Shown here: positions 8,083 to 29,403 of the stretch, piece by piece | How positions within the stretch are numbered: the stretch's first letter is position 1 | Layout of the letters: each line of letters opens with the position of its first letter | NCBI GenBank assembly: GCA_964532335.1 | Contig: CAZHHV010000005.1 | Span: 1-33,848, forward strand | Origin: an uncultured Nitrospiraceae bacterium | Lineage (GTDB): Bacteria; Nitrospirota; Thermodesulfovibrionia; Thermodesulfovibrionales; UBA1546 | Reading direction: 5' to 3' | DNA length: 33,848 nt | Program-made: the position numbers and the translations under genes | Notes under the pieces: model-generated | What the model was told of the DNA's origin: nothing | Database searches by the model: none | Seen by the model: only the letters and a program-made list of their open reading frames with translations

Positions 8083-8192
8083 GTCATTCCCGCTTGTCGG
8101 GAATCCTTCTCTTGTCATTCCGACTTGTTCGGAATCCTTCAGAAAGATTGCGGACAAGCCGCAATGACAAAATAGGGACAAGCCAGAATGAC
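8083..8192. repeat. 110-bp cluster of four roughly 24-bp hairpin units (two forward, two inverted), GTCAT...ATGAC element
   Basis: gtcattcccgcttgtcgggaatcc (8083-8106), gtcattccgacttgttcggaatcc (8114-8137), gattgcggacaagccgcaatgac (8146-8168, inverted), gggacaagccagaatgac (8175-8192, inverted). Lies between asd and the next gene. Confidence 0.85.
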
Positions 8193-8248
8193 AAGAATGA
8201 ATTTCATATTATTAAAACTCATAACTCTAAACCTTTAATCAATTCGCT

Positions 8249-10141
8249 ATGAACATCAAGCTTGCAACAGGAGAAAGCATACCCGCAGCAACAGGTGAAA
8301 ACATCCTCTCTGCGCTCAAAAAGAAGGGTATCTATCTTGTTTCCTCATGCGGCGGCAAAGGCACATGCGGAAAATGCCGCATAAAGATTCACGCCGGGAA
8401 ATACAGGACCTCCGCATCAGGCAAACTCTCTCAGGCTGACAAAGAGAAAGGCATTGTCCTTGCCTGCCAAACATTCCCTGAAAGTGACATCTCCGCAGAG
8501 ATACTTGAAGAGGCAAGGCTTGTTGTCGGAGACAGGATTGCCCTGTCAAAATCAAAAGACCTTTCAGAGCTTTTCAGGTCCTTTGACAAAGAGATAACAC
8601 CCATCGTAAAAAGGCTTAACATCAAACTTCCGCCTCCTACAATAGAGGATCACATAAGCGATCTTGAGCGCTTGAAAAGGGAGCTTGAGCTGAAAGGCAT
8701 CAAAGGCATGAGGTTCTCCCATACATTTGCATCATCAATGGCAGATGACCTTAGAAAACACAACTGGGAAATACATCTCGCCTATGTTGACCCCGTTAGA
8801 AAAGATTTTTCTAACGGGGTTGACGGCCCGGAGGCAATCTTTGTTACATCCGACAAGCAAACCGCAAGATACGGCATTGCAGTTGACATCGGAACAACAA
8901 CGATTGTCGTATATCTCATTGACCTTTCTGACGGAAAACTCGTTGATGTGGGTTCAACATACAATTCACAGATACGATACGGCGATGACGTCATCACAAG
9001 GATAGTCCATGCAACAGAGAGCGGCGGGCTTGAAGAATTAAGGGAAACTGTCACGGATGATATAAACAACATCACCGATACTATTATTGAAAAACATGGC
9101 ATAAATAAAGAGCACATAGAATGCGCTGTAATCTCAGGGAATACAACCATGTCTCATATCTTCTGGGGGCTTGATCCCGGGCATATCAGGGAAGAGCCGT
9201 ATATACCTACTGTAAATTCATTTCCGCTGTGGAAGGCAGGGACAGCAAGGCTTCACATAAATAAACAAGCTCCTGTTTATACTCTGCCGTGTGTTGCAAG
9301 TTATGTCGGAGGCGACATTGTCTCAGGAGTGCTTGCATCAAAGATGCACAGAAACCATGAGACAGCATTATTCATGGACATCGGCACAAACGGAGAGATT
9401 GCAATAGGCAACAATGAATGGCTTATGACAGCGGCATGTTCTGCGGGCCCCTGTTTTGAAGGAAGCGGGATAAAGCACGGAATGAGGGCCACCGAAGGCG
9501 CGATAGAGGCTGTAAAGATTGCGCCTGATACATTTGAGCCTTCCATCTCTGTTATCGGCAATACTGTGCCAATAGGCATATGCGGCTCAGGAATGATAGA
9601 CGCAATATCAGAGCTGTTTCTTTCTGGCGTCATAGACCGGAAAGGAAAATTTATCCGTGAAATAAAAACAGGCCGCATAAGAGAGGGAGATGAAGGCGCA
9701 GAATTTGTCCTCCACAAAGGGGCAAAAGATATTGTCCTTACAGAAGTTGACATTGAGAATATCATGAGGGCCAAGGCAGCGATTTATGCAGGGATATCGC
9801 TTCTTATAAAAGAAGTAGGGTTCACGCTGGACAGTATAGAGCGCATATATGTAGCAGGAGGGTTCGGCAACTATCTGAATGTTGACAGGGCTGTAATAAT
9901 CGGAATGCTCCCTGACATTCCAAAAGAAAAGTTCAGATTTTTAGGCAACACATCAGTTGCAGGGGCTTATCTGTGCCTGCTCTCAGAAAAACTCAGGAAA
10001 GAAGCAGAGGAGATTGCGCGGAAAATGACATACATGGAGCTTTCAGTCTCAAGGAATTTTATGGATGAATACATGTCGGCGCTTTTCCTGCCGCATACTG
10101 ATATAAGCCTTTTTCCGACAGTCGCAAAACTGCTTAAATAA
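8249..10141 (+). CDS. RACo-like corrinoid reductive activase ([2Fe-2S] ferredoxin domain plus ASKHA/DUF4445 ATPase)
   Basis: 630 aa. N-terminal plant-type ferredoxin motif SSCGGKGTCGKCRIKI...LACQT. ASKHA phosphate-1 motif GIAVDIGTTTIVVYL, and later FMDIGTNGEIA and CGSGMIDA. Confidence 0.75.
   Translation: MNIKLATGESIPAATGENILSALKKKGIYLVSSCGGKGTCGKCRIKIHAGKYRTSASGKLSQADKEKGIVLACQTFPESDISAEILEEARLVVGDRIALSKSKDLSELFRSFDKEITPIVKRLNIKLPPPTIEDHISDLERLKRELELKGIKGMRFSHTFASSMADDLRKHNWEIHLAYVDPVRKDFSNGVDGPEAIFVTSDKQTARYGIAVDIGTTTIVVYLIDLSDGKLVDVGSTYNSQIRYGDDVITRIVHATESGGLEELRETVTDDINNITDTIIEKHGINKEHIECAVISGNTTMSHIFWGLDPGHIREEPYIPTVNSFPLWKAGTARLHINKQAPVYTLPCVASYVGGDIVSGVLASKMHRNHETALFMDIGTNGEIAIGNNEWLMTAACSAGPCFEGSGIKHGMRATEGAIEAVKIAPDTFEPSISVIGNTVPIGICGSGMIDAISELFLSGVIDRKGKFIREIKTGRIREGDEGAEFVLHKGAKDIVLTEVDIENIMRAKAAIYAGISLLIKEVGFTLDSIERIYVAGGFGNYLNVDRAVIIGMLPDIPKEKFRFLGNTSVAGAYLCLLSEKLRKEAEEIARKMTYMELSVSRNFMDEYMSALFLPHTDISLFPTVAKLLK
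8790..8820. repeat. Perfect 14-bp-arm palindrome ACCCCGTTAGAAAA-gat-TTTTCTAACGGGGT inside the RACo-like CDS
   Basis: Arms at 8790-8803 and 8807-8820. Read in-frame as DPVRKDFSNGV. Same arm sequence as 6904-6938. Confidence 0.85.
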
Positions 10142-10154
10142 TTTATAATATACC

Positions 10155-10802
10155 ATGAAGCTTTTGATGCACATCTGCTGCGCAAACTGCAGTCTTTATC
10201 CCATCAAAACACTAACTGAAAAGGGCGTTTCCGTAACAGGACTGTGGTTTAATCCCAATATCCATCCTTATGTGGAATATAAAAATAGACTGGATGCAGT
10301 TAGAAAGCTTGAGTGCCTCTGGAAAAACGATAATAAAATCCCCCCTAACCCCCCTTTATTAAAGGGGGGCGAGGGGGGATTTTTGCAAAAGGGGGAGAGG
10401 GAAGGATTCTCGTGGGGAGGAGCAGATTTTCAAGTGCATTATATAGACTGCTACGGCATCAAGGAATTCATACAGAAGACAGGCAACGGCAGTGAGAACC
10501 GCTGCAGTGCGTGTTATGAAATGAGGCTTGACAAGACAGCCCAAACAGCCAGAGAGATCGGCGCTGACGGCTTTACAACCTCGCTCCTTATAAGCCCCTA
10601 CCAGAAATTTGATGTTATAATAGACATTGGCAGAGAAATGGAGAAAAGGCACTCTGTGCAATTTTATTTTGAAGACTTCAGACCCGGCTGGAAGCAGGGG
10701 GTTGAGCTTTCAAAGGAGCTCGGGCTTTACAGGCAGAAATATTGCGGCTGCATCTATTCCGAGATGGAGAAACACCTTAAAGTTCGGGAGGAAGTGAGAT
10801 GA
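10155..10802 (+). CDS. queH: Epoxyqueuosine reductase QueH (DUF208) with an in-frame palindromic-element insertion
   Basis: 215 aa. LMHICCANCS...GLWFNPNIHPY..EY..R and CSACYEMRLD...TTSLLISPYQ...YRQKYCGCIYSE are QueH hallmarks. IPPNPPLLKGGEGGFLQKGEREGFSWGG is encoded by the repeat. Confidence 0.9.
   Translation: MKLLMHICCANCSLYPIKTLTEKGVSVTGLWFNPNIHPYVEYKNRLDAVRKLECLWKNDNKIPPNPPLLKGGEGGFLQKGEREGFSWGGADFQVHYIDCYGIKEFIQKTGNGSENRCSACYEMRLDKTAQTAREIGADGFTTSLLISPYQKFDVIIDIGREMEKRHSVQFYFEDFRPGWKQGVELSKELGLYRQKYCGCIYSEMEKHLKVREEVR
10335..10383. repeat. Nested C6/G6 palindrome (family A), copy inside queH
   Basis: Outer arms aaaatcccccct (10335-10346) and aggggggatttt (10372-10383). Inner arms cccccctTTA (10349-10358) and TAAagggggg (10360-10369). 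Confidence 0.9.
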
Positions 10803-16393: not shown

Positions 16394-17292
16394 TGCTTGC
16401 AAAACGCATAATACCGTGCCTTGATGTTAAGGACGGAAGGGTTGTAAAAGGCGTAAGCTTTCTTAATCTCAGGGATGCAGGAGACCCTGTTGAGAATGCA
16501 ATCTTTTATGATGAGCAGGGCGCTGATGAACTCGTATTCCTTGATATAACAGCATCGCATGAGAAGAGAAATATTATCCTTGACGTTGTTGAAAGGACTG
16601 CAGATGATGTATTTATGCCGCTTACAGTCGGTGGAGGAATCGGCGCTCTTGATGATATAAGACAGCTTCTGAAATCAGGATGCGATAAGGTTTCTGTAAA
16701 TACATCTGCTGTAAGAGACCCTTATTTTGTGAGCCGCGCAGCAGAGAAGTTTGGAAGCCAGTGCATTGTCGTTGCAATTGATGCGAAGCGTGTTACAAAA
16801 GAGATGACATTTACAGAAGAGGAGAAATGGTTTAATGAGCCGTCTTTAAAAGAAGTTCAGCTGGAACTGGATAAGAAAAATCCCCCTCAATCCCCCTTTG
16901 CCAAAGGGGGACTTAATAATATCCCCACTTTGCTAAAGGGGGGATTATGGGCGATATCTACACACGGCGGAAGAAAGATGAAAAGCATTGATGCTGTGCA
17001 ATGGGCAAAGAAGATGGAGGAATTGGGCGCAGGCGAGATTCTCCTTACGAGCATGAACAGGGACGGCACAAAGGACGGATATGACATTGAGCTTACAAAG
17101 GCAATTTCAGAGGCTGTGTCAATTCCTGTTATCGCCTCAGGCGGCGCAGGCAATTTAGAGCATCTCTATGAAGGACTTGTGCTTGGCAAGGCTGATGCTG
17201 TATTGGCTGCATCCATATTTCACTACAGGGAATATACAATCAAAGAGGCAAAGGAGTATTTGAAAGAAAAGGGAGTTATTGTAAGGCTTTAA
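16393..17292 (+). CDS. hisF: Imidazole glycerol phosphate synthase cyclase subunit HisF with an enlarged loop
   Basis: 299 aa. [64 protein letters not shown] junction with ybeY. Confidence 0.95.
16876..16946. repeat. Family A C/G palindromes (two hairpin modules) inside hisF
   Basis: tccccctttg/caaaggggga (16891-16911), and tccccacttt-gct-aaagggggga (16922-16944, one mismatch). Outer arms aaaaatccccct / aggggggatt. Read as [23 protein letters not shown]. Confidence 0.85.
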
Positions 17293-18363: not shown

Positions 18364-19149
18364 TTATGCGCCTGTTACTCTTCTGCGTGGAATCATTTCC
18401 AGTTTGCTTTCAGTCCCTCCCAGTTTAGCGAGCCTTCTGGCGCTTTCTCTCGCTATAAGCGCTTTTAAAAACTTCTCAACAATCCTCACAATCTCCCTGT
18501 GAATATCAGCAATGCCCTTTGAGGCTTTTACCAATTTTATTCTCTTTGGTTCTTTAGCCGTAAGCTTTAGAAAACCTTCTCTGACTTTTTTGTGAAACCT
18601 TACATCTTCAAGCTCAAGCCTGTCCCTTTTGTTTATTCTTTTGTTTCTCATAAGGCCGGTCTCAACATCGAGGTCAAGGAGTATCGTGAGGTCAGGCCTC
18701 ATCCTTCCTGTTGCAATCCTGTCAAGAGAGTCTATTAGTTTAGGGCTTATGCCCCTGCCATAGCCCTGATACGCGACAGTGGAATCGCTGAAACGGTCTG
18801 TAATGACAACCCTCCCGCTTTCAATTGCAGGAATAATCTTTTCTTTTATGTGCTGGATCCGCGCTGCGTTATAGAGCAGAAGCTCTGCCATATAATCCAT
18901 TTTGTCATGTTTAGTTGAAAGCAGAACCCTTCTTATCTCCCTGCTTATCGCAGTCCCTCCGGGCTCTTCGGTAAGCGCTGTCTCATATCCTTTTTTTGTA
19001 AGATACTCAGAAAGCATTCTTGCCTGTGTGGATTTGCCGGTGCCCTCTATTCCTTCAAAAGATATAAAAATCCCCCTCTTGCCCCCTCTACGAGCCATGG
19101 CCTTTGACAAAGGGGGGTGGGGGGGGATTTCTAATTTTCCGCCTTTCAT
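18364..19149 (-). CDS. tmk: Thymidylate kinase (start ambiguous: 19149 with ATGA coupling, or 19098)
   Basis: FISFEGIEGTGKSTQ P-loop, then TEEPGGT, DRFSDSTVAYQG. The first 17 codons (MKGGKLEIPPHPPLSKA) are repeat-derived. There is a roughly 30-aa basic C-terminal tail. Confidence 0.9.
   Translation of the reverse strand: MKGGKLEIPPHPPLSKAMARRGGKRGIFISFEGIEGTGKSTQARMLSEYLTKKGYETALTEEPGGTAISREIRRVLLSTKHDKMDYMAELLLYNAARIQHIKEKIIPAIESGRVVITDRFSDSTVAYQGYGRGISPKLIDSLDRIATGRMRPDLTILLDLDVETGLMRNKRINKRDRLELEDVRFHKKVREGFLKLTAKEPKRIKLVKASKGIADIHREIVRIVEKFLKALIARESARRLAKLGGTESKLEMIPRRRVTGA
19066..19130. repeat. Family A C/G palindrome (degenerate centre) at the tmk 5' end
   Basis: aaatccccc (19068-19076) pairs with gggggattt (19122-19130). 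Inner gccccc / gggggg runs. The central gccatggc carries the alternative ATG at 19098. Confidence 0.75.
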
Positions 19150-20153
19150 TTTGAATACGCCTCTTTGAGCTGCATAAGCATCTGGAATATCTTTAATGCC
19201 TCCTCAATGCTCCTGGAGCCTGTGCCGCATGACGGCGTAAGGATTATCCTTGAAAGAATAAGTCCTGATGAGACTGCCTTGGACATCTTTTCCAGTTTCA
19301 TGTCAAATTGTTTTCTTATTGAATCAAAAGTTTCACGCCTTATCGCATCTGTTGTAGGCACAATCCCCCAGGCAAGGCATCCTCCTCTTTCAAAAAATCT
19401 GTCAACATCACTGCGATACATCAAGAGCGTGTCAAAATATCCGTAAGCATCAAAGTTCAGGATATCTATGCCTGTTCCCATCACAGAAGGCCAGTCGGCA
19501 TTGCCGCAGCAGTGTATGCCTGAAATGCCTCCATTGTCTTTTATGGTATCTGAAGCCTCTCTTATAAGCCTCATTGCATCATCAGAGTTTACGCCAAGAT
19601 AGGCTGTGCTGCCGAGGGCAGAGAGTATCGGCTCATCAAGAAATATAATCACATTATCTGCAAACTGCTTAAGCATGCCTATCTGCCATCTGATCTTTGC
19701 CTTAAGAAGCATAAGCGCTATTTCCCTGAGTTCCTCATCAAAATAAACCGGCCTTCCATCAGCGTCTTTGAGCCCGAGCGTAAAGGTCAGAGGCCCTGTT
19801 ACATGCCCCTTGAGAAACCCAAAAGGCGCTTTAATCATTTTGAGAAATGCATGGAGCCCTCTTCCATAATCATCAGAGATTGCAATCCTGCTGTCATCAG
19901 TGCATGACTCATAGAACCTTTCAAGCTCATCGCTCTTGTTTCTTTCAATCCAGACCAGTTCTTTTTCTGCATCTATCCTGATATAAGGCATTCCTTCTGA
20001 GTACTGAGGTACCATCCACTCCCTGAAGGACATCTTGGGAAGCTGGGGCCAGAAAGGGATGTCAAAAATTTTGAGGATGAGCCTGCACGCCTCTTCAGCA
20101 TCTTTGTGCGGAAGGCTTCCGATTCCTGTTGTTGAGAATGGTTTTGGCAGCAT
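19146..20153 (-). CDS. MetE/MtaA-like Zn-dependent methyltransferase family protein (TIM barrel), function uncertain
   Basis: 335 aa. TTGIGSLPH N-terminus. Candidate Zn ligands in GIHCCGN and LTPSCGTG, resembling cobalamin-independent methionine synthase and methylcobamide methyltransferase motifs. Confidence 0.5.
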   Translation of the reverse strand: MLPKPFSTTGIGSLPHKDAEEACRLILKIFDIPFWPQLPKMSFREWMVPQYSEGMPYIRIDAEKELVWIERNKSDELERFYESCTDDSRIAISDDYGRGLHAFLKMIKAPFGFLKGHVTGPLTFTLGLKDADGRPVYFDEELREIALMLLKAKIRWQIGMLKQFADNVIIFLDEPILSALGSTAYLGVNSDDAMRLIREASDTIKDNGGISGIHCCGNADWPSVMGTGIDILNFDAYGYFDTLLMYRSDVDRFFERGGCLAWGIVPTTDAIRRETFDSIRKQFDMKLEKMSKAVSSGLILSRIILTPSCGTGSRSIEEALKIFQMLMQLKEAYSK

Positions 20154-20203
20154 TTAAGAATGATACATTATTGGCTGCGGTTGTTTCAAATGGAGGGGTA
20201 TTC

Positions 20204-20551
20204 TTACTGCCTTAATCCCTTTAAAACATTATAAACCACCGCAAGCTCGCGTATTTCCATATCTTGCAGAGAAGAAGATATGGCGTCAATATACTCTTTC
20301 TTCTGTTTAGCCTCTTTTTTCCTGTCACGAAACAGAATTGTCCCCTTAAAATCAAAGAAATCTTTTGGATTTACACTGAGGGCTTTTGCCAGAGCTTCAA
20401 AGGTTTTAAATGACGGCTGCGACATGCCCCGCTCCAGCCTGCTTATATATTCAACGCTCAGCCCTGTCTTTTCAGCAAGCATTTCCTGCGTCAGTTTTGC
20501 GGCTTTTCTAATCTGCTTTATCCTCTTGCCCAACTGCTTGCCAAGGTCCAT
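20204..20551 (-). CDS. XRE-family helix-turn-helix transcriptional regulator
   Basis: 115 aa. LGKRIKQIRKAAKLTQEMLAEKTGLSVEYISRLERGMSQPSFKTFEALAKAL is a canonical Cro/C1 HTH. Confidence 0.85.
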   Translation of the reverse strand: MDLGKQLGKRIKQIRKAAKLTQEMLAEKTGLSVEYISRLERGMSQPSFKTFEALAKALSVNPKDFFDFKGTILFRDRKKEAKQKKEYIDAISSSLQDMEIRELAVVYNVLKGLRQ

Positions 20552-20634
20552 CGTGAGATACCTCTTTTTGATTGATAATATAGTGCATTCAGGGAGGATA
20601 ATAAGGGACTACTAATACGAATTTATATTTATTA

Positions 20635-20664
20635 TTGACATGATAGGTCTATATATGCTATAAA
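20635..20664 (+). promoter_or_regulatory. Sigma-70-like promoter for the TPR/beta-barrel gene
   Basis: TTGACA (20635-20640), an 18-nt spacer, then TATAAA (20659-20664). Downstream are a 7-bp-stem hairpin accgtta-aagaaa-taacggt (20673-20692) and a strong AGGAGG (20717-20722) 7 nt before ATG 20730. Confidence 0.4.
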
Positions 20665-20729
20665 CCAAACTGACCGTTAAAGAAATAACGGTAAATAAAG
20701 GTAGTCCCATATACACAGGAGGTCATCAT

Positions 20730-22250
20730 ATGCCCGACAAATGGCGGCTTTTCTTAATTGCATTAATCACCTGTATTTTCATTCAATCCTTTGCTTTTGC
20801 GCAGGACATTCAATACCAGCCGCTTATCTTCGGGATGGAGCATTACAAAAGCGGCAAATATAAGGAAGCACTTGAGGAATTCCAAAAAGCGATTGTTATC
20901 TTTCCGAACGACCCTGATGTGCCGTTTTATATCGGACTCGCCTATTTGCAGCTCAATGAGCCGGATAAGGCTATTGAATATTTTAAAAAGACCATAGAGA
21001 AAGATACCGGCTATACAGATGCCCATTTCCAACTCGGTATAGTTCTTATCCAGAAAAAAGAATACAAGAATGCTATTTCACACCTTGAGCAGATCCATAA
21101 AAAAGAGCCTGAAAGGGAAGATTTAGGCTACTTCCTCGGCTTTGCTCATTATCAAACAGGGGATTATAAAAAGGCGCTGCATTATCTTGAGAAGGCTAAG
21201 ACAAAGGATAAGACCATTGAGAGCCTTATCCTTTACTATACAGGACTTGCCAAGCAGCAACTCGGCAAAACCAAAGAGGCGGCGGTAGCGTATAAGAAGA
21301 TAATCATTACTGACCCGACATCTCCACTGGCAGAACCTTCACAGAGGCTTATCGCAGCAATAGAACTGGAAGAAAGGCTTAAAAAGCGGTTCAGCATAGA
21401 TTTGACCACCAAGCTTCAGTATGACGACAATATTATCCTTGTTCCGACCACCAATGTTTTCAATCTGAGAAATAAGGAGAGAAAAAGCACTATAGAACTT
21501 TTCTATCTGAGGGGCGAGTATGCCTTTATAAGAAAACCTGATTTTGACCTCGCGGCATCCTACGGCTTTTACCAGACCATTACTAACAAAATGAGAGATA
21601 TGGATGTTCAGGACCATATTCTTTCTCTTGACCTTTCAAAAAGGGGAAGCCTTGGCTCAATGCCATACGACTTTAAAATTAATTATGCATACGATTACCT
21701 GCTCTCGGATTATCATTATCTCCTTCAGAGGCATACCATAAGACCTGTGTTTATTCTGATGGAAAGCCGGATGAACCTGACTGTTTTCCAATATGCCTTT
21801 CAGGTCAAGGAATTCAGAGAAAAGCCTTTGTTCCTTGAGGATGACAGGGATGCCGTTAACCATGAAGCAGGCTTTATTCATTTCTTGAGGTTTAATGATG
21901 CAAAACACCATATAAAGGCCGGTTATTTTTACGATAGAGAGATTACCGAGGGGGCTAACTGGAAATATTCAGGGAATAAGCTTGTTACAGGTTTTCAATA
22001 CACATTCCCAAAAGACATCCGGTTGACTGCGGACTATGAATACAAAATGACCCGGTATAAGAATAACAACATTTACTTTGACAAAAAGCGTGAGGATACG
22101 GAAAGGTCACTGAATACAGTTGTCTCAAAAGATATTGGGAAAGGATGGAGTGTTTCTCTGGAATATCTACGGAGGAGAAACTCATCCAATATAGATTTGT
22201 ATGACTATAGAAAGAACCTCTACTCAATGGGATTGAGTTGGAGATGGTAA
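20730..22250 (+). CDS. Outer-membrane protein with N-terminal TPR repeats and a C-terminal beta-barrel; Slam/DUF560-like (type XI secretion) translocator candidate
   Basis: 506 aa. Signal peptide ...IQSFAFA/QD, then TPR-like repeats (YKSGKYKEALEEFQKAI, LNEPDKAIEYFKKTIE, KKEYKNAISHLEQI, TGDYKKALHYLEKA, LGKTKEAAVAYKKII). The barrel begins RFSIDLTTKLQYDDNIILVP and ends REDTERSLNTVVSKDIGKGWSVSLEYLRRRNSSNIDLYDYRKNLYSMGLSWRW with an aromatic terminus. Confidence 0.6.
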   Translation: MPDKWRLFLIALITCIFIQSFAFAQDIQYQPLIFGMEHYKSGKYKEALEEFQKAIVIFPNDPDVPFYIGLAYLQLNEPDKAIEYFKKTIEKDTGYTDAHFQLGIVLIQKKEYKNAISHLEQIHKKEPEREDLGYFLGFAHYQTGDYKKALHYLEKAKTKDKTIESLILYYTGLAKQQLGKTKEAAVAYKKIIITDPTSPLAEPSQRLIAAIELEERLKKRFSIDLTTKLQYDDNIILVPTTNVFNLRNKERKSTIELFYLRGEYAFIRKPDFDLAASYGFYQTITNKMRDMDVQDHILSLDLSKRGSLGSMPYDFKINYAYDYLLSDYHYLLQRHTIRPVFILMESRMNLTVFQYAFQVKEFREKPLFLEDDRDAVNHEAGFIHFLRFNDAKHHIKAGYFYDREITEGANWKYSGNKLVTGFQYTFPKDIRLTADYEYKMTRYKNNNIYFDKKREDTERSLNTVVSKDIGKGWSVSLEYLRRRNSSNIDLYDYRKNLYSMGLSWRW

Positions 22251-22264
22251 AGGAGGAAAGGAAA

Positions 22265-23431
22265 ATGATAGTAGCAATGTATCTTGCGTTCTCAGTTTTT
22301 AACCTACATGCAGAGTCATTGCCGCAGGTTCCTACAGACTTTATATTGCCGCTTCAAAGTAATGACAAAATATATTTAGTTACAGAGGCTGGAGGAAAAT
22401 CGCCAATCTATACTAAAGAGGAAGGATATTATGATTCTTTTCATGCTTCCGACAAAGCTTATTATTCATTAGATTTTGATGTGGGAAAAGGGGGCAAGGC
22501 AAATGTAGTTGCAGTTGACAGCGGGAAGGTTGTTGCTGTTGTCTATGAAGGGAAATACCAGCATATTACGGTAGACCATGGCAATGGATATCTTACAGAA
22601 TATGCTGAATTTGATATTGACAAAAAGTTTAAAGTGGGTGATAAGGTCGGGAAAGGTGATAAACTTGGAATTTTATCAGGTAAGCCAGTGGAACATCTAC
22701 ATTTTCAGGTTAAATATTCTGAGACAGGCGAACATGGAACAGGACTAAGCAAAAGAGATAACAGGGGACTTGAGGGTGTTAAAATAGCTGGAGTCCCTTT
22801 AACAGATTACAAACTAAAGGATAAAAATGGAGTTCCCCAAAGCACGGATGTTGTAGATGTATTAAAGTCAGCTAATATGTCATCAGCCGCCAAGCAAATA
22901 TCCTCTCAACAGATTAATTCGTCTGCTCAGATTGCGCTTCAGGATTTTGAAAAGATTACCAAGACTGCCCATACCACGCCTATGCAAGTTGTTAATCTCC
23001 TTCCCGACAAGGACAAAGTCGCTCAGCAGACACCTGATAAACTGACCAAGCAACTCCCAGACAATTATACAGTCCCTTTGAAAGGCACATTATTATGGAC
23101 ATCTTCCAATTCATCAAGTAAGCCAGTTGGACAAATCGACGATGCTGGTGGTGGTGGAACAATAACAAAAAATGGCAATAATATTACATTTTTCATTCCT
23201 AATACAGACCCTTCTAATAGAAAAGGCGATACTCTAACAGGTACTATTTCTGGGACTTCATTTTCCGTTACAGGCGGATTCCAATCAGATCCTTTAGATG
23301 GTTGCCCAACCTGTGCGGCTACCATCACTATGAATGGAAATATCTATATTAATGGAAAAATTATGAGTGGAACATACAAGAAAGTTGGGACGGGAGGGGA
23401 AGAGTCTTATACTGGAATTTTCATCAAATAA
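22265..23431 (+). CDS. Secreted M23/LytM-family metallopeptidase with a low-complexity linker and a Gly/Thr-rich C-terminal beta domain (candidate Slam cargo)
   Basis: ATG 22265 has AGGAGG 8 nt upstream. Alternatives are ATG 22244 and TTG 22238, which overlap the upstream stop. Signal peptide MIVAMYLAFSVFNLHA/ES. M23 core: VVAVDSGKVVAV, ITVDHGNGYLTEYAEF, VKVGDKVGKGDKLGIL, EHLHFQV. C-terminus: TLTGTISGTSFSVTGG...GKIMSGTYKKVGTGGEESYTGIFIK. Confidence 0.8.
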   Translation: MIVAMYLAFSVFNLHAESLPQVPTDFILPLQSNDKIYLVTEAGGKSPIYTKEEGYYDSFHASDKAYYSLDFDVGKGGKANVVAVDSGKVVAVVYEGKYQHITVDHGNGYLTEYAEFDIDKKFKVGDKVGKGDKLGILSGKPVEHLHFQVKYSETGEHGTGLSKRDNRGLEGVKIAGVPLTDYKLKDKNGVPQSTDVVDVLKSANMSSAAKQISSQQINSSAQIALQDFEKITKTAHTTPMQVVNLLPDKDKVAQQTPDKLTKQLPDNYTVPLKGTLLWTSSNSSSKPVGQIDDAGGGGTITKNGNNITFFIPNTDPSNRKGDTLTGTISGTSFSVTGGFQSDPLDGCPTCAATITMNGNIYINGKIMSGTYKKVGTGGEESYTGIFIK

Positions 23432-23671
23432 AAGAGGGGCAGATTTTCGGGGAAATAGAGATTATTAAGTAATGTGATGTAACAGGAATCTAACAGTAAT
23501 TCGGAGACTCAAGACGCCAATGCATGTTATCGGTCTCTTGCAGTCGTCCGAAAACTTTTTCTTCTCCTCTTGTGAATCAAATATCATATGCAATTTTAAG
23601 GGGACAGGTACATTTTATCCTGCGGACATGCGGTATCCAGCCTGGGATTTTTTAGGAGTCGGCGACAGGAT

Positions 23672-24082
23672 TTATGTTTTCCAGTTGTCTAACAGCAACC
23701 CCTCAATGCGGGAAAAGTGATTGGTGTTATTCGTAATGAGGACAAGGTTGTTTACGACTGCTATTGCAGCAACAAGGATATCGGCATCGGATATGATGTT
23801 CCCCTTCTCTTTAAGAGATGCATATATGTCGGCAGCTTTCACTATGGCATCATCAGTAATTGGAAGAACATTGTTGATAGCACAGAACCTGTTAAAAAGC
23901 TCAATCTGCTTTTCAGCCTTTTTTGCCTTCAATCCTTTAAGAATTTCATATTTCGTTATATGGGAGATGTTAAGGCAACTGTGGATGCTGATATATTCGG
24001 AAGCCTTTGCCAATACCTTGGAATTTTTCTTGAAAAGCTCTGAAAGAATATCCGTGTCAATAAGTGAAGGGGGATAAGCCAT
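23672..24082 (-). CDS. vapC: PIN-domain toxin (VapC-like)
   Basis: 136 aa. LIDTDILSEL, HITKYEIL, ISDADILVAAIAV, LITNNTNHF are the four PIN acidic-residue regions. Confidence 0.8.
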   Translation of the reverse strand: MAYPPSLIDTDILSELFKKNSKVLAKASEYISIHSCLNISHITKYEILKGLKAKKAEKQIELFNRFCAINNVLPITDDAIVKAADIYASLKEKGNIISDADILVAAIAVVNNLVLITNNTNHFSRIEGLLLDNWKT

Positions 24083-24085
24083 GTC

Positions 24086-24310
24086 TCAATGCCTTGAGAA
24101 GCCGCTTCTATCTAATGCCAGTTTTTCTATATCTTCTATGTCTTCAGGAGAAAGTCCGTTGTACACCATGGACAAGAGCGAAAGAATATCGGCAGATTTT
24201 ACCGGTTCATCTTCGATGGTGAGGGTTACCTTCTTATGTTCTGAGATATTGAGCGGAGAGACCGGTATCAAAACTCCCCTCTCAAATACTGCTTCTATTG
24301 TTTTAGGCAT
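24086..24310 (-). CDS. Small antitoxin, AF2212/DUF104-like (VapB-type partner)
   Basis: MPKTIEAVFERGVLIPVSPLNISEHKKVTLTIE is the typical N-terminal motif of this antitoxin family. ATG 24310 is preferred over 24331 because AAGGGGG lies about 10 nt upstream. Confidence 0.6.
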   Translation of the reverse strand: MPKTIEAVFERGVLIPVSPLNISEHKKVTLTIEDEPVKSADILSLLSMVYNGLSPEDIEDIEKLALDRSGFSRH

Positions 24311-24355
24311 TTTGATATTACCCCCTTTCAAATCGGGATGGCTAACCCATGACTA

Positions 24356-24384
24356 AATTTATCACACGCGCGGCTTTCTGTCAA
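24356..24384 (-). promoter_or_regulatory. Sigma-70-like promoter for the second vapBC operon
   Basis: On the minus strand: TTGACA (24384-24379), a 17-nt spacer, then TAAATT (24361-24356). Confidence 0.4.
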
Positions 24385-24448
24385 ATTTTAACACGCACAG
24401 GCCAAAGGAACTCCTGAATTTACTGTTGAGATGGAAGGCATAAATCTT

Positions 24449-25123
24449 TTATGGACTAAATTTTATGTAGTTCTCCCAGTAACCAAGCAGTTCCTTTGTC
24501 GCCTTAATATCTCCGAGGCAGTACCTTGCAATATCAAGATACCTTTTATCGGCAAAAAGGTTTTTAATATCATATCCTGTTATGCCGTCTTCTTTCGGGC
24601 TCTTTATGCCGAATGTCTTGCACCACATATCAAGGCTGAACCTGCGCCTTGATGCGCCGTAAAAAGTAAGCTGGTCAAGGAGGTCTATATGAGCGCCGTT
24701 ATACCTGTTGGGCATAAGGTCTTTTGTAGGCTTTATCTTATGAACAGCAGAGCGGATAAGAATGAACGGGCAGTCAAAGCCCCTTCCGTTGAATGTGATT
24801 ATCTCTCTATAGCTTTTAACCGTATTCCAGAATTTTTCAAGAATTTCTTTTTCTGTGCCTGTTTCAAATTTTATCCCGTTCTCTTCAAAAGGAGCGATTT
24901 GTGTTTCAGGCGACTGGAAATATACCGTCCCTTTGTCTGTATCAGGGTTAAGAATGCCTATGGTGATGACTTCGCCTGTTAAGGGATAGAATGAAAGGCT
25001 TTCCTTGACATCCTTGATATCATCGTCTGTCTCTGCCCAGCGAAGCAGGTATTCCTGCGTGCTCTTGTCAAGGGAATCAAAGTCTTTGCCGCTTGTCTCT
25101 ATGTCAAAAATGATTCTACTCAT
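24449..25123 (-). CDS. DEDD 3'-5' exonuclease, RNase H-like fold (PolB-exonuclease-related)
   Basis: 224 aa. Exo I IFDIETSG, Exo II ITFNGRGFDCPFI, Exo III HIDLLD...YCLGDIKAT. Confidence 0.75.
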   Translation of the reverse strand: MSRIIFDIETSGKDFDSLDKSTQEYLLRWAETDDDIKDVKESLSFYPLTGEVITIGILNPDTDKGTVYFQSPETQIAPFEENGIKFETGTEKEILEKFWNTVKSYREIITFNGRGFDCPFILIRSAVHKIKPTKDLMPNRYNGAHIDLLDQLTFYGASRRRFSLDMWCKTFGIKSPKEDGITGYDIKNLFADKRYLDIARYCLGDIKATKELLGYWENYIKFSP

Positions 25124-25133
25124 ACAGATATAG

Positions 25134-25228
25134 AACAGTAGAGCAACAGAACAGTAGAGCAGCAGGCTAATAAGGAAATATATAAATCCTTATTTCGAAG
25201 CTACTGGTCTACTGCGCTACTGCTCTAT
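25134..25228. repeat. Intergenic structured element: inverted octamer arrays flanking a central hairpin
   Basis: Left array aacagtag agcaacag aacagtag agcagcag (25134-25165). Centre aataagga-N10-tccttatt (25169-25194). Right array ctactggt ctactgcg ctactgct ctat (25201-25228), which is roughly the reverse complement of the left array. Confidence 0.8.
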
Positions 25229-25231
25229 TTT

Positions 25232-26560
25232 TTATGCTGCTTTGGGTAGTTCCTTAAAAACCTTCCATGTCTTAAGAAGGTCTATTGCCCTCTGGAGCTG
25301 AATATCTTCTTTTTCGCTGACCTCTATTGGCACTGTTTCCTCGGGTGTCTTTTGCTTTTCCTCAAGCTGGTCGTTTTTGAGATGCCTTTCAAGGTCCTTC
25401 TCTCTTACCACAGGATGTTCTTTTGTGCCATTTTTCTGTTCCAATTTCACAATAATATCCGGCGTAATTCCTGTTGATTGTATAGATATGCCTTTTGGCG
25501 TATAGTAGCGCGCTGTTGTAAGTCTTAACCCTGAGCCATCGCTTAGAGGCACAACGCTCTGAACAGAGCCTTTTCCAAAAGTCTGCACTCCGAGTATAAC
25601 AGCCCTGTTCCAGTCTTTAAGCGCTCCTGCGACAATCTCAGAGGCGCTTGCGCTTCCCTGATTTACAAGGACAATCATCGGTATAGCGCTGAACATCTTT
25701 GCTTTTTCCCCTTTCTGTTCAGAAACCTTGCTGTCTTCTGTCCGATACTCTCCTTTTTCACCGCTCCTGCCCTTTATGGATACAACAACCTTGCCTGCCG
25801 GCAGAAACTGGCTTGAAACATCAACAGCGCTGTTCAAAAGTCCGCCCGGATTGTTCCTGAGGTCCAGGATAAGTGAAGTTATATTCTGCTTCTCCAGTTT
25901 AGAAAGGGCGGCTTCAAGGTCATCCGCAGTGCGTTCCTGAAACTGGCTTACCTTCACATAGCCGATATTGCCTTCTATGACCCTGGATTTCACGCTTTTC
26001 ACTTTTATTACATCTCTCACAATCGTGAAGTCTTTTGTATCTTTCCAGCCCTCACGCATAATCGTAATTGCTACGGAAGTGCCTTTTAGCCCGCGCATTT
26101 TGCTGACAGCGTCCTGCAGGCCCATATCCCTTGTTGACTCTCCGTTAATCTTTATTATCTTATCGCCTGACTTTATCCCTGCATTATAAGCCGGCGTATC
26201 TTCAATAGGAGCTATTACAGTCAGAATCCCATCCTTCAGCCCTATCTGTATCCCTATTCCGCCGAACTCGCCTTTTGTGTCAAGCTGCATATCCTTATAT
26301 GCCTCCGGCGGCATAAAAGCTGAGTGCGGGTCCAGAGAATTAAGCATTCCCTTTATCGCGCCATATACCAAATCCTTTGTCGTTACTTCTTCAACATAAT
26401 TCTTCTTCACAAGAGAAAGCACCTCTGTGAATACCTTAAGATATTCATAACCTTCGCCCTCAGCGCGCATGCTCCCGATTGACAGCCTGCCTATGAAGAC
26501 GCCACTCAAGGCAATTGCAAGAATAATCACCCAAGTTAAAATAAGTCTTTTATTTTTCAT
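25232..26560 (-). CDS. ctpA: Carboxy-terminal processing protease (S41, Ctp/Prc family)
   Basis: 442 aa. N-terminal TM. PDZ region GGIGIQIG...PAYNAGIKSGDKIIKING. Catalytic region VLVNQGSASASEIVAGAL and TFGKGSVQ. Confidence 0.9.
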   Translation of the reverse strand: MKNKRLILTWVIILAIALSGVFIGRLSIGSMRAEGEGYEYLKVFTEVLSLVKKNYVEEVTTKDLVYGAIKGMLNSLDPHSAFMPPEAYKDMQLDTKGEFGGIGIQIGLKDGILTVIAPIEDTPAYNAGIKSGDKIIKINGESTRDMGLQDAVSKMRGLKGTSVAITIMREGWKDTKDFTIVRDVIKVKSVKSRVIEGNIGYVKVSQFQERTADDLEAALSKLEKQNITSLILDLRNNPGGLLNSAVDVSSQFLPAGKVVVSIKGRSGEKGEYRTEDSKVSEQKGEKAKMFSAIPMIVLVNQGSASASEIVAGALKDWNRAVILGVQTFGKGSVQSVVPLSDGSGLRLTTARYYTPKGISIQSTGITPDIIVKLEQKNGTKEHPVVREKDLERHLKNDQLEEKQKTPEETVPIEVSEKEDIQLQRAIDLLKTWKVFKELPKAA

Positions 26561-26614
26561 TGTCTCTTAAAACCTCTCCTTAAATCCTGCCTTCCCATTA
26601 CAGCCGCCAAAAAA

Positions 26615-27754
26615 CTATCTCTTCATTTTTAACCACTGCATGGGGTCCAGCGGTTTCCCTTTATATCTTACCTCAAAATACAGGCCCGGCGCATTCAGGG
26701 TTCCTGATTCCCCGACCTTGCCTATGGCCTGCCATTCTTTTATTATATCTCCAACTTTATAAAAAATCTCGGCTAAATTTGCGTATAGGGTATGATAGCC
26801 TTCCCCATGACTTATTATAACAAGCTTGCCGTAACCTTTGAACCAGTCGGCAAATACAACCTTGCCCCCGTGCACTACCTTTGCCAATGCATCGTCATCC
26901 GCTTTGATATGTATGCCGTTTCTGAATACCGGCGTGTTGAACTGAGGGTCTTTCTGCGCCCCGTACGGGATTACAACCTTCCCGTTGACAGGCCAGTCCA
27001 GCTTCCCCTTCAGATTGTGAAAGCCCTTTGCGGCATATGCCTCGGCTTCCTCAGAACGCCTTATTATCTCCATAAGCCTGTTGGAAGCCTCTTTTAATTC
27101 CTTCAACATATTCTCGTAAGAAGATTTTTCCTTTCTTACAGAGGACAGAAGCATTTCTTTGCCTTTTTTCTTTTCTGCGATTGCCTTCTCGTTTGCCTGT
27201 ATCTTTTCCTCGCTTTTTTTTAGTTCGGCGTGCAGCGTCTTTAAGCGGCTTTCCTGCTCTGCAAGATTTTTTATGGTCTCTTTATAGCTGTTCAGCATCT
27301 TATGGTCGTACCCTGCCATCTCTTTAATATACCTCCACCTTCTCATCAACTGAGCTATGTCCTCCGAAGTTGAAAGCAGAATCACAACATCGCCTGAATA
27401 CCCATATTTCTGCATAACGCGAAGTTTCCTCTTAAGCCACTCCGCCTGCCTTTCGAGTTTTGCCCTGTTTACCGATATGTCTGCCTCAACCTTGCGTATC
27501 TCATTTTCCGTAACCTTTCGCTTTCCAATGTATTTTCTTAACTCCGCCTGAGTCTGGCTGAGGTCCTTATTCGTCCTGTCAAGTTCTTCAAGTACCGAAT
27601 GCTCCATCTTCTTGGCTTTCTCAAGTTTTTCCTTGTGGGTATCTATTTCTTTTTGAAGCTTCTTGTATTCTTCCTTGGGATCTTTGGCAGCAAAAGCAAT
27701 ATCGGTAAATAGTGAACAGTGAATTGTGAATAGTAAGATTAATACAAGACGCAT
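26615..27754 (-). CDS. envC: EnvC-like murein hydrolase activator (coiled coil plus degenerate LytM domain)
   Basis: I prefer ATG 27754 (MRLVLILLFTIHCSLFTDIAFA/AKDP signal peptide). The track start 27856 would add 34 repeat-encoded residues. Long coiled coil. The LytM domain lacks the zinc ligands (GIHIKA, GLYFEVRY replace HxxxD and HLHFE). Sits in ftsEX context. Confidence 0.75.
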   Translation of the reverse strand: MRLVLILLFTIHCSLFTDIAFAAKDPKEEYKKLQKEIDTHKEKLEKAKKMEHSVLEELDRTNKDLSQTQAELRKYIGKRKVTENEIRKVEADISVNRAKLERQAEWLKRKLRVMQKYGYSGDVVILLSTSEDIAQLMRRWRYIKEMAGYDHKMLNSYKETIKNLAEQESRLKTLHAELKKSEEKIQANEKAIAEKKKGKEMLLSSVRKEKSSYENMLKELKEASNRLMEIIRRSEEAEAYAAKGFHNLKGKLDWPVNGKVVIPYGAQKDPQFNTPVFRNGIHIKADDDALAKVVHGGKVVFADWFKGYGKLVIISHGEGYHTLYANLAEIFYKVGDIIKEWQAIGKVGESGTLNAPGLYFEVRYKGKPLDPMQWLKMKR

Positions 27755-27857
27755 GATGTACGATGCATGATGCCTGATACCCCCCTTTAATTCCCCCCTT
27801 GCTAAGGGGGGATAGAGGGGGGGTATATCCTGTATCTTGTATCCTGTATCCTGCATC
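27751..27857. repeat. Composite element: family A nested C6/G6 palindrome flanked by inverted heptamer arrays (ftsX-envC junction)
   Basis: gcatgat gtacgat gcatgat gcctgat (27751-27778). Outer arms atacccccc (27777-27785) and ggggggtat (27818-27826). Inner arms tcccccctt-gct-aagggggga (27792-27812). atcctgt atcttgt atcctgt atcctgc (27827-27854). A further array agtgaac agtgaat tgtgaat lies at 27711-27731. Confidence 0.85.
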
Positions 27858-27862
27858 TTTTT

Positions 27863-28741
27863 TCAGGAGAATCTTATTCTTCCCAGCGCAATTACAGCGC
27901 CTCCTATGCCTAACAGCAATCCGGCAATAGGAAGGGCAGGGAAAGTTTCAAGGGGGAATACAAGGATTTTCAGTATTGGGATGGTAGCGGTAACCTTATA
28001 AAACAGCACATAGTAAAATGCGAACGCGGCTGCCATGCTTGCAATCCCGCCGAACATCCCGAGCACGCTCCCCTCTATAACAAAAGGCGCCCGTATGAAT
28101 CCCCTTGTTGCGCCAAGAAGTTTAAATGTTTCTATCTCTTCTTTTCTCCTGTAAAACGCAATCTTTATGGTGCTGTAACATACAAAAATCACTCCTGCCG
28201 ACATTATGATAATAAGAGATAAGCTGCCTGCCTTTGCCATTCCTTTGATAGAGTGGATGGAATTAAGGAATTGTTCGCCGTACTCCACCTCTGCAATGCC
28301 TTTTACTTTTTTAATCTCTGCGGCGAATTTCTTAACGCTTGCGATATTGACAGATTCTTTCTTAAGCTTAATCTCAATTGATGCGGGGAGAGGGTTTTCG
28401 TCAATGCCCTCAAGAATATAATCTGCATTCTTTAAAACGCCCTTTAATTCCTCCAGCGCCTTATCCTTTGCTATATATCTTGCCTGTTCAACGGCATTAT
28501 TCTTTTTCAGTTGTGCAATTATGCTTCGTGTTTCCTGCTCTGACAGCCCGTCAGCCAGGTAAAGCATTACTGAGAATCTTGCCGGAAGTCTTTTTGTTGC
28601 AAGGTCTATGTTATAAACAACAAAAAATGTGAGTGTGATCATAAACAGCCCTGCCGCGATTGTCAGCACTGAGAGGAGATTTATCCACTTTTCACGCCAT
28701 AAGCTTTGGAGGGCAAGTCTGAACGAATATAAAAGATACAT
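27863..28741 (-). CDS. ftsX: Cell division permease-like protein FtsX
   Basis: 292 aa, four TM segments with a large periplasmic loop. LGATRGFIRAPFVIEG motif. 1-nt overlap with the ftsE stop. Confidence 0.85.
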   Translation of the reverse strand: MYLLYSFRLALQSLWREKWINLLSVLTIAAGLFMITLTFFVVYNIDLATKRLPARFSVMLYLADGLSEQETRSIIAQLKKNNAVEQARYIAKDKALEELKGVLKNADYILEGIDENPLPASIEIKLKKESVNIASVKKFAAEIKKVKGIAEVEYGEQFLNSIHSIKGMAKAGSLSLIIIMSAGVIFVCYSTIKIAFYRRKEEIETFKLLGATRGFIRAPFVIEGSVLGMFGGIASMAAAFAFYYVLFYKVTATIPILKILVFPLETFPALPIAGLLLGIGGAVIALGRIRFS

Positions 28742-29403
28742 TATCCTATCTCCTCTCCGACCATATTGCCGTTGTCAATCCTGAACACTCTCCGCCCTGT
28801 ATTCCTGTAAAGTTCCCTGTTATGTGTAGCGATAACAACTGTAGTTCCCCTTGCGTTAATATCTTTAAACAAGCGCGTAATTCCTGCCGCAGTGTCAGGG
28901 TCAACGTTGCCTGTCGGCTCATCGGCAAGAAGGATTGTCGGCTCTCCGACTATTGCGCGCGCAATAACTACTCTCTGCTGTTCACCGCCTGAAAGCGCCC
29001 GCGGAAAACTGTCCGCCTTATGCCTTAAATTCACCATCTTCAGTATTTCCATCACCCAATCCTGTATCTCGCTGTCCAGCATGCCTCGTATGCGCAAGGC
29101 TATGGCAACATTGTCAAAGACATCCCTGTTGTCAAGAAGCCGGAAGTCCTGAAAGACAACACCTATATTCCGTCTTAAAAACGGGATGCTTGATTCCTTA
29201 AGCTTGCTCAGATCCCATTCTGCTACGGTTACGCTGCCCTCATCAGGTTTTTCTGAAAGGTATATAATCTTAAGGAGTGTGGATTTCCCGGCGCCGCTCG
29301 GCCCTGTCATAAAAACCATTTCGCCTTTTTCTATGGAGAAGGTTATGTTCTTAAGAGCCGCCTGCTTTTCATAAAACTTAGTGACATTGGAAAAATGTAT
29401 CAT
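28741..29403 (-). CDS. ftsE: Cell division ATP-binding protein FtsE
   Basis: 220 aa. Walker A GPSGAGKST, signature LSGGEQQRV, Walker B ILLADEPTGNVD. Confidence 0.93.
   Translation of the reverse strand: MIHFSNVTKFYEKQAALKNITFSIEKGEMVFMTGPSGAGKSTLLKIIYLSEKPDEGSVTVAEWDLSKLKESSIPFLRRNIGVVFQDFRLLDNRDVFDNVAIALRIRGMLDSEIQDWVMEILKMVNLRHKADSFPRALSGGEQQRVVIARAIVGEPTILLADEPTGNVDPDTAAGITRLFKDINARGTTVVIATHNRELYRNTGRRVFRIDNGNMVGEEIG

Follow-up and report, generated by a model that had tools for sequence, protein, structure and literature searches.

A possible type XI secretion-like outer-membrane exporter with exchangeable envelope-degrading cargo in an uncultured Nitrospiraceae bacterium

Introduction

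Does a member of the Nitrospiraceae carry a dedicated outer-membrane exporter for an enzyme that degrades cell walls? The question is raised by two adjacent genes in a 33,848-nt stretch of DNA from an uncultured bacterium of this family (contig CAZHHV010000005.1 of assembly GCA_964532335.1, positions 1-33,848 of the forward strand), which is called the window throughout. The first gene (20730-22250, + strand) encodes a 506-aa protein in which tetratricopeptide repeats (TPRs) precede an outer-membrane barrel, and the second (22265-23431, + strand) encodes a 388-aa M23 peptidase. An original prediction, made from the sequence alone, had taken the first protein for a Slam translocator and the second for its cargo. 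Our analysis leads to a modified reading, to which we give a probability of roughly 0.55: the locus would encode an XRE-controlled, one-component outer-membrane exporter that resembles the type XI secretion system (T11SS, or Slam/TXISS) and handles exchangeable envelope-degrading cargo in a non-proteobacterial lineage.

T11SS is the least explored of the Gram-negative secretion routes. To our knowledge, all verified T11SS cargo comes from animal-associated Proteobacteria and consists of hemophores, lipoproteins that bind metals or host factors, and adhesins. Slam proteins combine an N-terminal TPR domain with a predicted 14-stranded DUF560 barrel (PMC5449769). The available surveys of T11SS cover Proteobacteria and describe as cargo hemophores, TbpB/LbpB/fHbp-like lipoproteins, NilC, Pls-like and DUF1194 proteins, whose N-terminal effector regions vary and which in cluster 1 have an eight-strand barrel at the C-terminus (PMC12282271, PMC8406197). 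Soluble non-lipidated cargo is known (hemophilin/HphA), and cluster 1 has been tied to mobile islands (PMC5449769, PMC8406197, PMC12282271). A 2026 review presents T11SS as Proteobacteria-specific and its cargo as heme-binding (PMC13162877). In the searchable literature we found no paper describing a peptidoglycan hydrolase or a lipase as T11SS cargo, in line with the original prediction, which had held cargo of the first kind to be undescribed.

Results

The 506-aa protein begins with a signal-like segment (about residues 1-24), continues with five TPR stretches at residues ~30-218 (nt 20817-21383; Pfam, TPR_2 101 bits) and ends in the aromatic C-terminus ...LSWRW. Its gene is preceded by a ribosome-binding site, AGGAGG, at 20717-20722. 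An AlphaFold2 model, built from a 28-sequence alignment of homologues, had a mean predicted local distance difference test score (pLDDT) of 90.4 and showed 11 helices over residues 30-218, then exactly 14 strands (residues 221-505; nt 21390-22244). The sequence, the Pfam matches and the model agree with the signal peptide, the five or so TPRs and the C-terminal barrel that had been read from this open reading frame (ORF), and also with the 14-strand barrel that had been expected. Among the Foldseek matches in the PDB, the best to the barrel alone were the 14-strand CymA and OmpG (TM-score 0.52-0.65, normalised to target) and not 16-18-strand exporters. The top match by E-value for the protein was BcsC (2.7e-12; TM-score 0.35-0.38, root-mean-square deviation 13-14 Å), which ranks first because BcsC likewise has TPRs and then a barrel. 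No Slam structure was among the PDB matches, either by fold or by sequence, and a search of the barrel profile against all PDB sequences gave nothing usable. As modelled, the barrel fold and the architecture of the protein are those published for Slam.

A collection of 5.8 billion proteins held 56 homologues of the barrel domain, from metagenome-assembled genomes (MAGs) of Nitrospirae, Nitrospinae and Omnitrophica, and only three homologues of the M23 protein; the neighbourhoods of barrel loci were therefore the ones examined. We covered 70 or more such loci, all on metagenome contigs or in MAGs, with our own ORF scans. Nearly all loci with at least 42% identity and enough downstream DNA have, after the barrel gene, a co-directional gene for a signal-peptide protein (here called the cargo), which follows directly or after a small inserted toxin-antitoxin (TA) or PIN cassette. 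The conserved pairing foreseen by the original prediction was thus found in about 20 related loci from Nitrospirae, Omnitrophota and Brocadiaceae MAGs (the paired loci are the window, L001, L002, L003, L007, L009, L024, L026, L027/31, L028, L029, L033, L034, L038, L042, L043, L044, L045, L075 and L077). The sole clear exception was L063, and L011 has a decayed CHAP remnant.

The N-terminal parts of these cargo proteins fall into several kinds. An M23 domain is found in at least six loci (the window, L024, L027/L031, L029 and L038; by Pfam in the window, L024, L029 and L031), and a CHAP domain in L001, L009/L034, L028 and L042 (by Pfam in L001, L009 and L042, and in L028 by similarity to L001). 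A DUF676-type esterase/lipase with weak similarity to Tle3 is encoded in L033/L041, L044 and L077 (by Pfam in L033, and in L077 by similarity to L033). Two unannotated helical domains (L007, L043 and L075; L045 and the middle of L031) and other unannotated N-termini (L002, L003 and L026) complete the set. At the C-terminal end, the cargo of at least 12 loci has in common a domain of ~155 aa (VTPVKVEFTQTFDGLFTQ...KVGTMSGSWSQ), which we call class A; it had no Pfam or PDB sequence match, and a profile search of the 5.8e9-protein database returned seven fragments only. A different common C-terminus, ending ...IP (class C), is found in the cargo of L029 and L007 and in the second cargo of L028, and the cargo proteins of L003, L042 and the window each have a further C-terminus of their own.

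L028 carries two cargo-like genes in series (7269-8792 and 9569-10741): the first encodes a CHAP plus class-A protein and the second a helical protein with the class-C ending '...SGSFVIP', and a lipoprotein gene lies between them. The arrangement resembles an effector array.

Elsewhere too, lipoprotein genes follow the cargo in relatives, and they include DUF2242 proteins, BamE-like proteins and an unannotated family of ~244 aa with a Gly/Ala-rich hydrophobic C-terminal segment. The DUF2242 and ~244-aa lipoproteins recur up- or downstream of the pair, together with differing cargo types (L026 5232-5798, L043 8554-9060, L039 87-623, L074 1686-2216 and L077 4926-5420; further L010 5124-5858, L035 1020-1760, L075 7905-8621 and L074 1094-1570). 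We considered these lipoproteins as immunity genes and downgraded the idea, since members of the same families accompany cargo of different types and can also precede the barrel; a role as accessory components seems likelier than one as specific immunity proteins.

In a distant clade (~30% identity; Nitrospirales, NC10 and Binatia) no co-directional cargo gene was found beside the barrel gene. A convergent gene for a YdjM-family membrane protein lies 3' of the barrel there (L018 3602-4153; similar in L020, L022 and L023), and an upstream gene (L018 632-1054) encodes a small protein with a HExxH motif and no Pfam match, ending ...CGHELHHAALGHFHP.

Exchange of the cargo was seen in DNA comparisons of close relatives. 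The window and L024 are 89% identical in DNA over 19001-22249 and 94% identical from 23670 on, and a hypervariable slot (22250-23670) lies between the conserved barrel gene and the VapC gene. Within it, similarity is limited to a 36-nt junction (22236-22271, + strand; 97%) and a 70-nt M23 fragment. The junction comprises the last barrel codons, the stop codon, the Shine-Dalgarno (SD) sequence and the ATG, and serves as the 5' limit at which the cargo cassette recombines; it recurs at 97% identity before the cargo genes of L024 and L038, there after an inserted TA cassette. The slot of L024 measures 4.5 kb and holds an opposite-strand DUF2283/DUF4258 pair, a different M23 plus class-A cargo and four lipoprotein genes, and the VapC ORF at the end of L024 aligns with the window VapC at 94% DNA identity. 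Over the 3,960 nt that precede the junction, L038 and L024 share 99.7% identity; after it they differ, with unrelated cargo N-termini from the start codon (MKKNSLIFF... vs MKGLSKILS...). Because the cargo differs from its first codon onward in contigs of 99.7% identity, the cargo position is, as judged from these alignments, a cassette slot that is exchanged exactly at the stop/SD/ATG junction. The window cargo itself is a mosaic: its M23 part is 61% identical in protein to L031 and also resembles L038, its linker is 84% identical in DNA to L029, and its C-terminus is unique. Taken together, these sequence comparisons give strong and unexpected evidence for a polymorphic enzyme-cargo module.

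In close relatives, the XRE gene and the barrel gene occupy one and the same place on the chromosome, the variable part being the slot. The acquired islet of the original prediction has to be refined accordingly.

Where a TA or PIN cassette is inserted (L005, L024, L026, L028, L030, L038 and L077), duplicated last barrel codons and SD precede the displaced cargo. The inserted TA-type cassettes (DUF2283 plus DUF4258; DUF3368 plus UPF0175; PIN-like) are encoded on the other strand and sit precisely at the boundary of barrel stop and cargo gene (L024 3342-3810; L077 1858-2615; L028 6523-6987; L063 1569-2064; also L005, L026, L030 and L038).

In the window the junction reads ...TGG AGA TGG TAA AGGAGG AAAGGAAA ATG, with the barrel stop TAA at 22248-22250, AGGAGG at 22251-22256 and ATG at 22265. 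The cargo start is most likely this ATG, since it follows a perfect AGGAGG at a distance of 8 bases and the barrel stop at a distance of 14 nt; P0057 (388 aa), the gene call in the database, begins there too. A longer ORF of 397 aa opens at TTG 22238, and the residue numbers of the window cargo follow it below. The overlap of the barrel stop with the cargo start in the original prediction proved to be an artefact of this ORF, which reads the stop/SD region in another frame. The same applies to 'MEMVKEERKM', which opens many downstream ORFs and was rejected as a conserved cargo N-terminus.

The window cargo begins with a short signal peptide (MIVAMYLAFSVFNLHA, before ES). An M23 metallopeptidase domain follows at residues ~26-205 (nt 22313-22852), then a low-complexity linker (~206-272). 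Peptidase_M23 (PF01551) scored 43.3 bits over residues 78-161 (cutoff 28.7), and a profile of the M23 region matched solved M23 enzymes in the PDB with E-values of 1e-14 to 1e-8, zoocin A being among the relatives. The AlphaFold2 model of the cargo had pLDDT 80-92 in its M23 core, and M23 structures (Csd3, EnvC, LasA, lysostaphin and DipM) headed the Foldseek matches. All three lines agree with the M23 domain of the Sec-exported peptidase that had been predicted. In an alignment of the M23 region from five family members (A8, whose numbering is used here), H44, D54, H89 and H130 were among the invariant residues and the HLH motif was present, with H128 and H130 conserved. The histidine position of the canonical HxxxD is occupied by an invariant Tyr, and an invariant His stands ten residues before the Asp (FH...YYSLD). 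The window protein is likely an active enzyme in which the first ligand is arranged in an unusual way.

The last 125 aa of the window cargo (23054-23428, + strand) form an orphan beta-rich domain that contains CPTC; it has no family match, and its strands come from the AlphaFold2 model. It is a candidate export or targeting domain. The window C-terminus had no usable match among all PDB sequences, and an exhaustive HMMER search of 1.84 billion representatives returned one remote relative only (P0061, E 1.4e-4, with CPTC in common), on contigs of 1.2 kb that offer no gene context. P0061 (354 aa; L073 1-1161) consists of a signal peptide, an unannotated N-terminal region, a dockerin-like GDINSNGKIDLTEAIYALQ segment and then the shared CPTC domain. 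When the C-termini of the window (with P0061), class A, L003 and L029/L007 were compared by hhalign, no homology was found, with all probabilities below 2%; a 'MSGTY' domain common to the window and L003 was dropped on the same values.

Divergent from the barrel gene lies the gene for an XRE-family (HTH_3) regulator (20204-20551, - strand; PF01381, 65.9 bits). An HTH_3-type gene is found directly upstream of the barrel throughout the subclade of at least 62% identity (the window, L001, L002, L005, L006/L028, L008, L024, L026, L027, L037 and L038), in three sequence types and both orientations. A candidate sigma-70 promoter of the barrel-cargo operon was read at 20635-20664 (+ strand), with -35 TTGACA at 20635-20640, an 18-nt spacer and an extended -10 TGcTATAAA at 20656-20664. 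It is identical in L024 and L038; a consensus scan, which demands T at position 6 of the -10, did not list it. Just 3' of the -10 is a perfect 7-bp inverted repeat, ACCGTTA-N6-TAACGGT (20673-20692), which is a candidate XRE operator or a hairpin of the 5' untranslated region. Its conservation in L024 and L038 weighs little because these are close relatives. The XRE protein probably represses the operon at this promoter through the adjacent inverted repeat.

The five genes named at the outset (XRE, the 506-aa and 397-aa ORFs, PIN and the antitoxin-like gene) were all found at their given positions in a six-frame ORF list, as the original prediction had them. The pair is bracketed, as proposed, by the XRE regulator and a VapBC module, which consists of a VapC (PIN) toxin gene (23672-24082, - strand; PF01850, 44.6 bits; NCBIfam VapC, 83.6 bits) and an AF2212-like antitoxin gene (24086-24331, - strand; PF01954, 44.6 bits). 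This VapC/antitoxin pair (23672-24331) is the right-hand conserved flank of the slot and stands outside the export module. Of the core genes named as flanks, tmk (NCBIfam) was found on the left and a PolB-type exonuclease and an S41 Ctp peptidase on the right, but the 'MetE-like' ORF had no family match. This 335-aa ORF (19146-20153, - strand), without Pfam or NCBIfam match at the thresholds used, is kept at ~89% DNA identity in L024 and L038.

A complete cluster of cell-division and wall genes occupies 25232-29403 on the - strand: ftsE (28741-29403), ftsX (27863-28741), an envC-like M23 gene (26615-27856) and the S41 ctp peptidase gene (25232-26560). The genome's housekeeping LytM factor thus lies 3 kb from the accessory M23 gene. 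The G+C content is ~0.38-0.42 over 20501-25500 and ~0.43-0.46 in the flanks, so that the pair is indeed richer in A/T than its neighbours, as had been claimed; the dip is, however, modest, comparable dips occur elsewhere in the window, and the XRE gene has no such A/T-richness. Scans for Rfam families and tRNAs gave no hit in the window. A palindromic element rich in G/C (AAAATCCCCCCTAACCCCCCTTTA / TAAAGGGGGGCGAGGGGGGATTTT) is present at 10335-10384, with partial copies at 16876-16910, 19066-19090 and 27770-27797 that lie within coding regions (in hisF and at the 5' ends of tmk and of the envC-like gene). The copies in genes read as insertions of the PPL..KGG type, and HisF is 299 aa long with an extra segment.

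Discussion

The favoured reading would work as follows. The 506-aa protein would cross the inner membrane by Sec and insert in the outer membrane as a 14-strand barrel, with its five TPRs in the periplasm. The cargo, translated from its own strong SD sequence 14 nt downstream, would also be exported by Sec, captured in the periplasm by the TPR domain and handed by the barrel to the cell surface or the medium. Secreted or surface-displayed, the cargo enzymes could then degrade the envelopes of other cells, for antagonism or for lysis that yields nutrients. A repertoire of wall and lipid hydrolases that is polymorphic between near-identical strains, often beside TA, CRISPR or integrative-element genes, points to targets in other cells. 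The tight coupling of barrel and cargo and the strong candidate promoter are also in favour of this reading.

Like the outer-membrane proteins of T11SS (Slam1/Slam2, NilB, HrpB/HsmA), the barrel protein would be a single outer-membrane component with periplasmic TPRs and, as modelled here, a 14-strand barrel; its gene likewise adjoins a gene for a Sec-dependent cargo that has a variable N-terminal and a conserved C-terminal part. The differences are several. The window protein is under the PF04575 and TPR_Slam thresholds and its relatives match only the C-terminal half of the PF04575 profile; the lineage consists of MAGs of the Nitrospirae, Omnitrophota and Planctomycetota type; and the cargo N-domains are hydrolytic (M23, CHAP, esterase) instead of hemophores, metal- or host-factor-binding proteins or adhesins. 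The cargo C-domains have no TbpBBD or lipoprotein-C signature, and the cargo is swapped as cassettes at a conserved junction, next to an XRE regulator in place of a Fur/TonB-receptor context. The locus is, on these comparisons, T11SS-like in architecture and gene logic and not a demonstrable sequence member.

Several results weigh against this reading, and those on family membership come first. The assignment of the barrel to the DUF560/PF04575 Slam translocators, as made in the original prediction, did not hold: PF04575 gave no match to the window barrel (residues 205-506) even at E ≤ 10, an outcome named beforehand as one that refutes it. Among the families proposed for the search, Peptidase_M23 was recovered in the window proteins, but PF04575 and PF01298 had no match there. 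TPR_Slam (PF24575) reached 31.1 bits on the window protein, under its cutoff of 35.2. The only barrel family above cutoff was DUF2860 (PF11059; 29.9-32.3 bits, cutoff 22.9), which matched residues 373-504 with profile positions 160-293 of 294 and covers the last six or so strands. This family is uncharacterised and mentioned only in catalogues of outer-membrane proteins and in vaccine screens. In the homologues, 8 of 18 barrel domains matched PF04575 (SlipAM; best E 2.5e-8; 23.7-34.3 bits, cutoff 22) and 11 of the 18 matched DUF2860, on the same stretch; the relatives that match PF04575 are 56-67% identical to the window barrel. Because its matches overlap those of PF04575 in relatives, DUF2860 gives no functional information. 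The PF04575 matches in relatives span only profile positions 161-287 of 288, the last ~45%, which is the part that overlaps DUF2860. By these scores the barrel family sits at the edge of SlipAM, with a sequence membership that is marginal for the family and does not extend to the window protein.

The remaining adverse points concern the cargo. Read from ATG 22265, its signal peptide is short and lacks basic residues. The C-terminal 187 aa of the window cargo gave nothing meaningful against Pfam at permissive thresholds, PF01298 included, and no cargo protein of any locus matched PF01298 or lipoprotein-C. Between the C-terminal domain of the window cargo and the widespread class-A domain, no relationship was detectable. 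At least three unrelated C-terminal domains go with barrels of 78-89% identity, which would be awkward if the C-terminus were a sequence-specific signal. Beside the cargo gene of the window there is no immunity-like gene, and the lipoproteins of relatives have no homologue anywhere in the window. The AlphaFold2 model of the window C-terminus has eight strands at a pLDDT of 33-55, a low confidence. Its first non-M23 Foldseek matches, all weak, were NHBA-C3 (5o1r; E 0.011, TM-score 0.58 to target) and TbpB (E 0.016-0.027). The eight-strand barrel of TbpB is the fold by which T11SS cargo is recognised, and the C-terminal domain of NHBA is likewise an eight-strand barrel; given the model, these matches are suggestive only, a lead rather than a test of the TbpB-like barrel that the original prediction had proposed for the cargo C-terminus. 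Finally, all support for an exporter comes from metagenome contigs and was obtained by computation.

Two other kinds of system invite comparison. Like lysostaphin, LasA/staphylolysin, zoocin A and beta-lytic protease, the window cargo has a secreted M23 domain and then a separate non-catalytic C-terminal domain. Those bacteriolytic enzymes are exported by type II secretion or by Gram-positive Sec and carry SH3b or other wall-targeting modules at the C-terminus. The window cargo differs in its proposed export via an adjacent dedicated barrel, its orphan C-terminal domain and its Tyr at the HxxxD histidine. Polymorphic toxin loci (CdiA-CT of contact-dependent inhibition, Rhs, type VI secretion) have in common with this locus the replacement of whole cassettes at a short junction and the junction remnants before displaced cassettes, and the repertoire of amidase/peptidase and lipase recalls the Tae and Tle effectors of type VI secretion. 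Unlike in those systems, the polarity is reversed here, with a variable N-terminal enzyme and a conserved C-terminal domain, and the cargo is a separate Sec-exported protein instead of the tip of a large delivery protein. Unlike in effector-immunity loci, no cargo-specific immunity gene was found, the lipoproteins of relatives belonging to few families that do not follow the cargo.

Among the alternatives, the one that survives best, though we regard it as unlikely, is a scaffold for envelope remodelling, in which the TPR-barrel protein would be an outer-membrane anchor or regulator of periplasmic hydrolases that act on the cell's own wall, comparable to the TPR lipoproteins NlpI and LbcA with their partner hydrolases and Ctp proteases, and the M23 protein would stay in the periplasm. 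TPR domains are general protein-binding scaffolds, DUF2860 is the sole above-threshold barrel family of the window barrel, ctpA and cell-division genes lie within 3 kb, and an M23 gene without an immunity gene is what one would expect of a self-acting enzyme. However, a dedicated EnvC-FtsEX-CtpA set already adjoins the pair, and because this set is separate, housekeeping wall remodelling is an unlikely role for the accessory enzyme. The partner of the barrel is moreover hypervariable, even in strains of 99.7% identity, and can have an esterase/lipase or a helical domain, unlike housekeeping remodelling genes; several loci stand in integrase/TraG/resolvase or CRISPR/TA contexts; and a C-terminal domain common to unrelated enzymes points to trafficking or targeting. 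If the barrel were merely a periplasmic scaffold, the locus would be an ordinary accessory wall-hydrolase gene of little general interest.

Clearly less probable still is that the pair belongs to a mobile element or defence island, as an XRE-switched module for lysis, abortive infection or aid in mating or entry, the barrel being a release pore or the hydrolase's membrane partner. The hydrolase would then harm the envelope of its own host or open the wall for DNA transfer. XRE regulators and TA modules do flank the pair, and TA cassettes have been inserted repeatedly between barrel and cargo. L001 adjoins CRISPR-Cas RAMP genes, L003, L033 and L010 adjoin integrase, TraG/VirD4-like and resolvase genes, and L002 has an SLT transglycosylase upstream. 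TA genes, however, commonly gather in any variable region, and the window locus occupies a fixed site common to relatives of 89% DNA identity, with no integrase or transfer genes. Sec signal peptides together with a conserved non-enzymatic C-terminal domain fit an export cargo and not a suicide effector.

A BcsC/PgaA/PelB-type porin for exopolysaccharide export, to which the neighbouring peptidase would be unrelated and for which one could cite the first rank of BcsC (TPRs plus barrel) in Foldseek by E-value and the assignment of some PgaA homologues to PF04575 (Grossman et al., PMC8406197), was rejected as very improbable on strand number and gene context, given TM-scores to BcsC of only 0.35-0.38 at 13-14 Å, 14 modelled strands against 16, the absence of glycosyltransferase and synthase genes from the window and the related loci, and a conserved neighbour that is a secreted protein.

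The T11SS-like exporter thus remains our preferred reading of the locus. A wider proposal, which we put forward tentatively and as somewhat less probable than not, is that the related loci form an unrecognised T11SS-like branch outside the Proteobacteria, whose polymorphic envelope-degrading enzymes, with novel C-terminal targeting domains and exchanged as cassettes at a junction, would serve interbacterial killing or lysis-feeding; the M23 gene of the window would then be one allele.

Conclusions

If the locus is indeed a T11SS-like exporter of enzymes, the taxonomic and functional range of T11SS would be widened to enzymatic, probably antagonistic effectors in subsurface Nitrospirae-type bacteria and Omnitrophota. 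It would also offer a very small two-gene system for testing what a T11SS-type barrel recognises, and the related loci would supply new bacteriolytic enzymes as well as a new cargo domain of ~155 aa that has no annotation.

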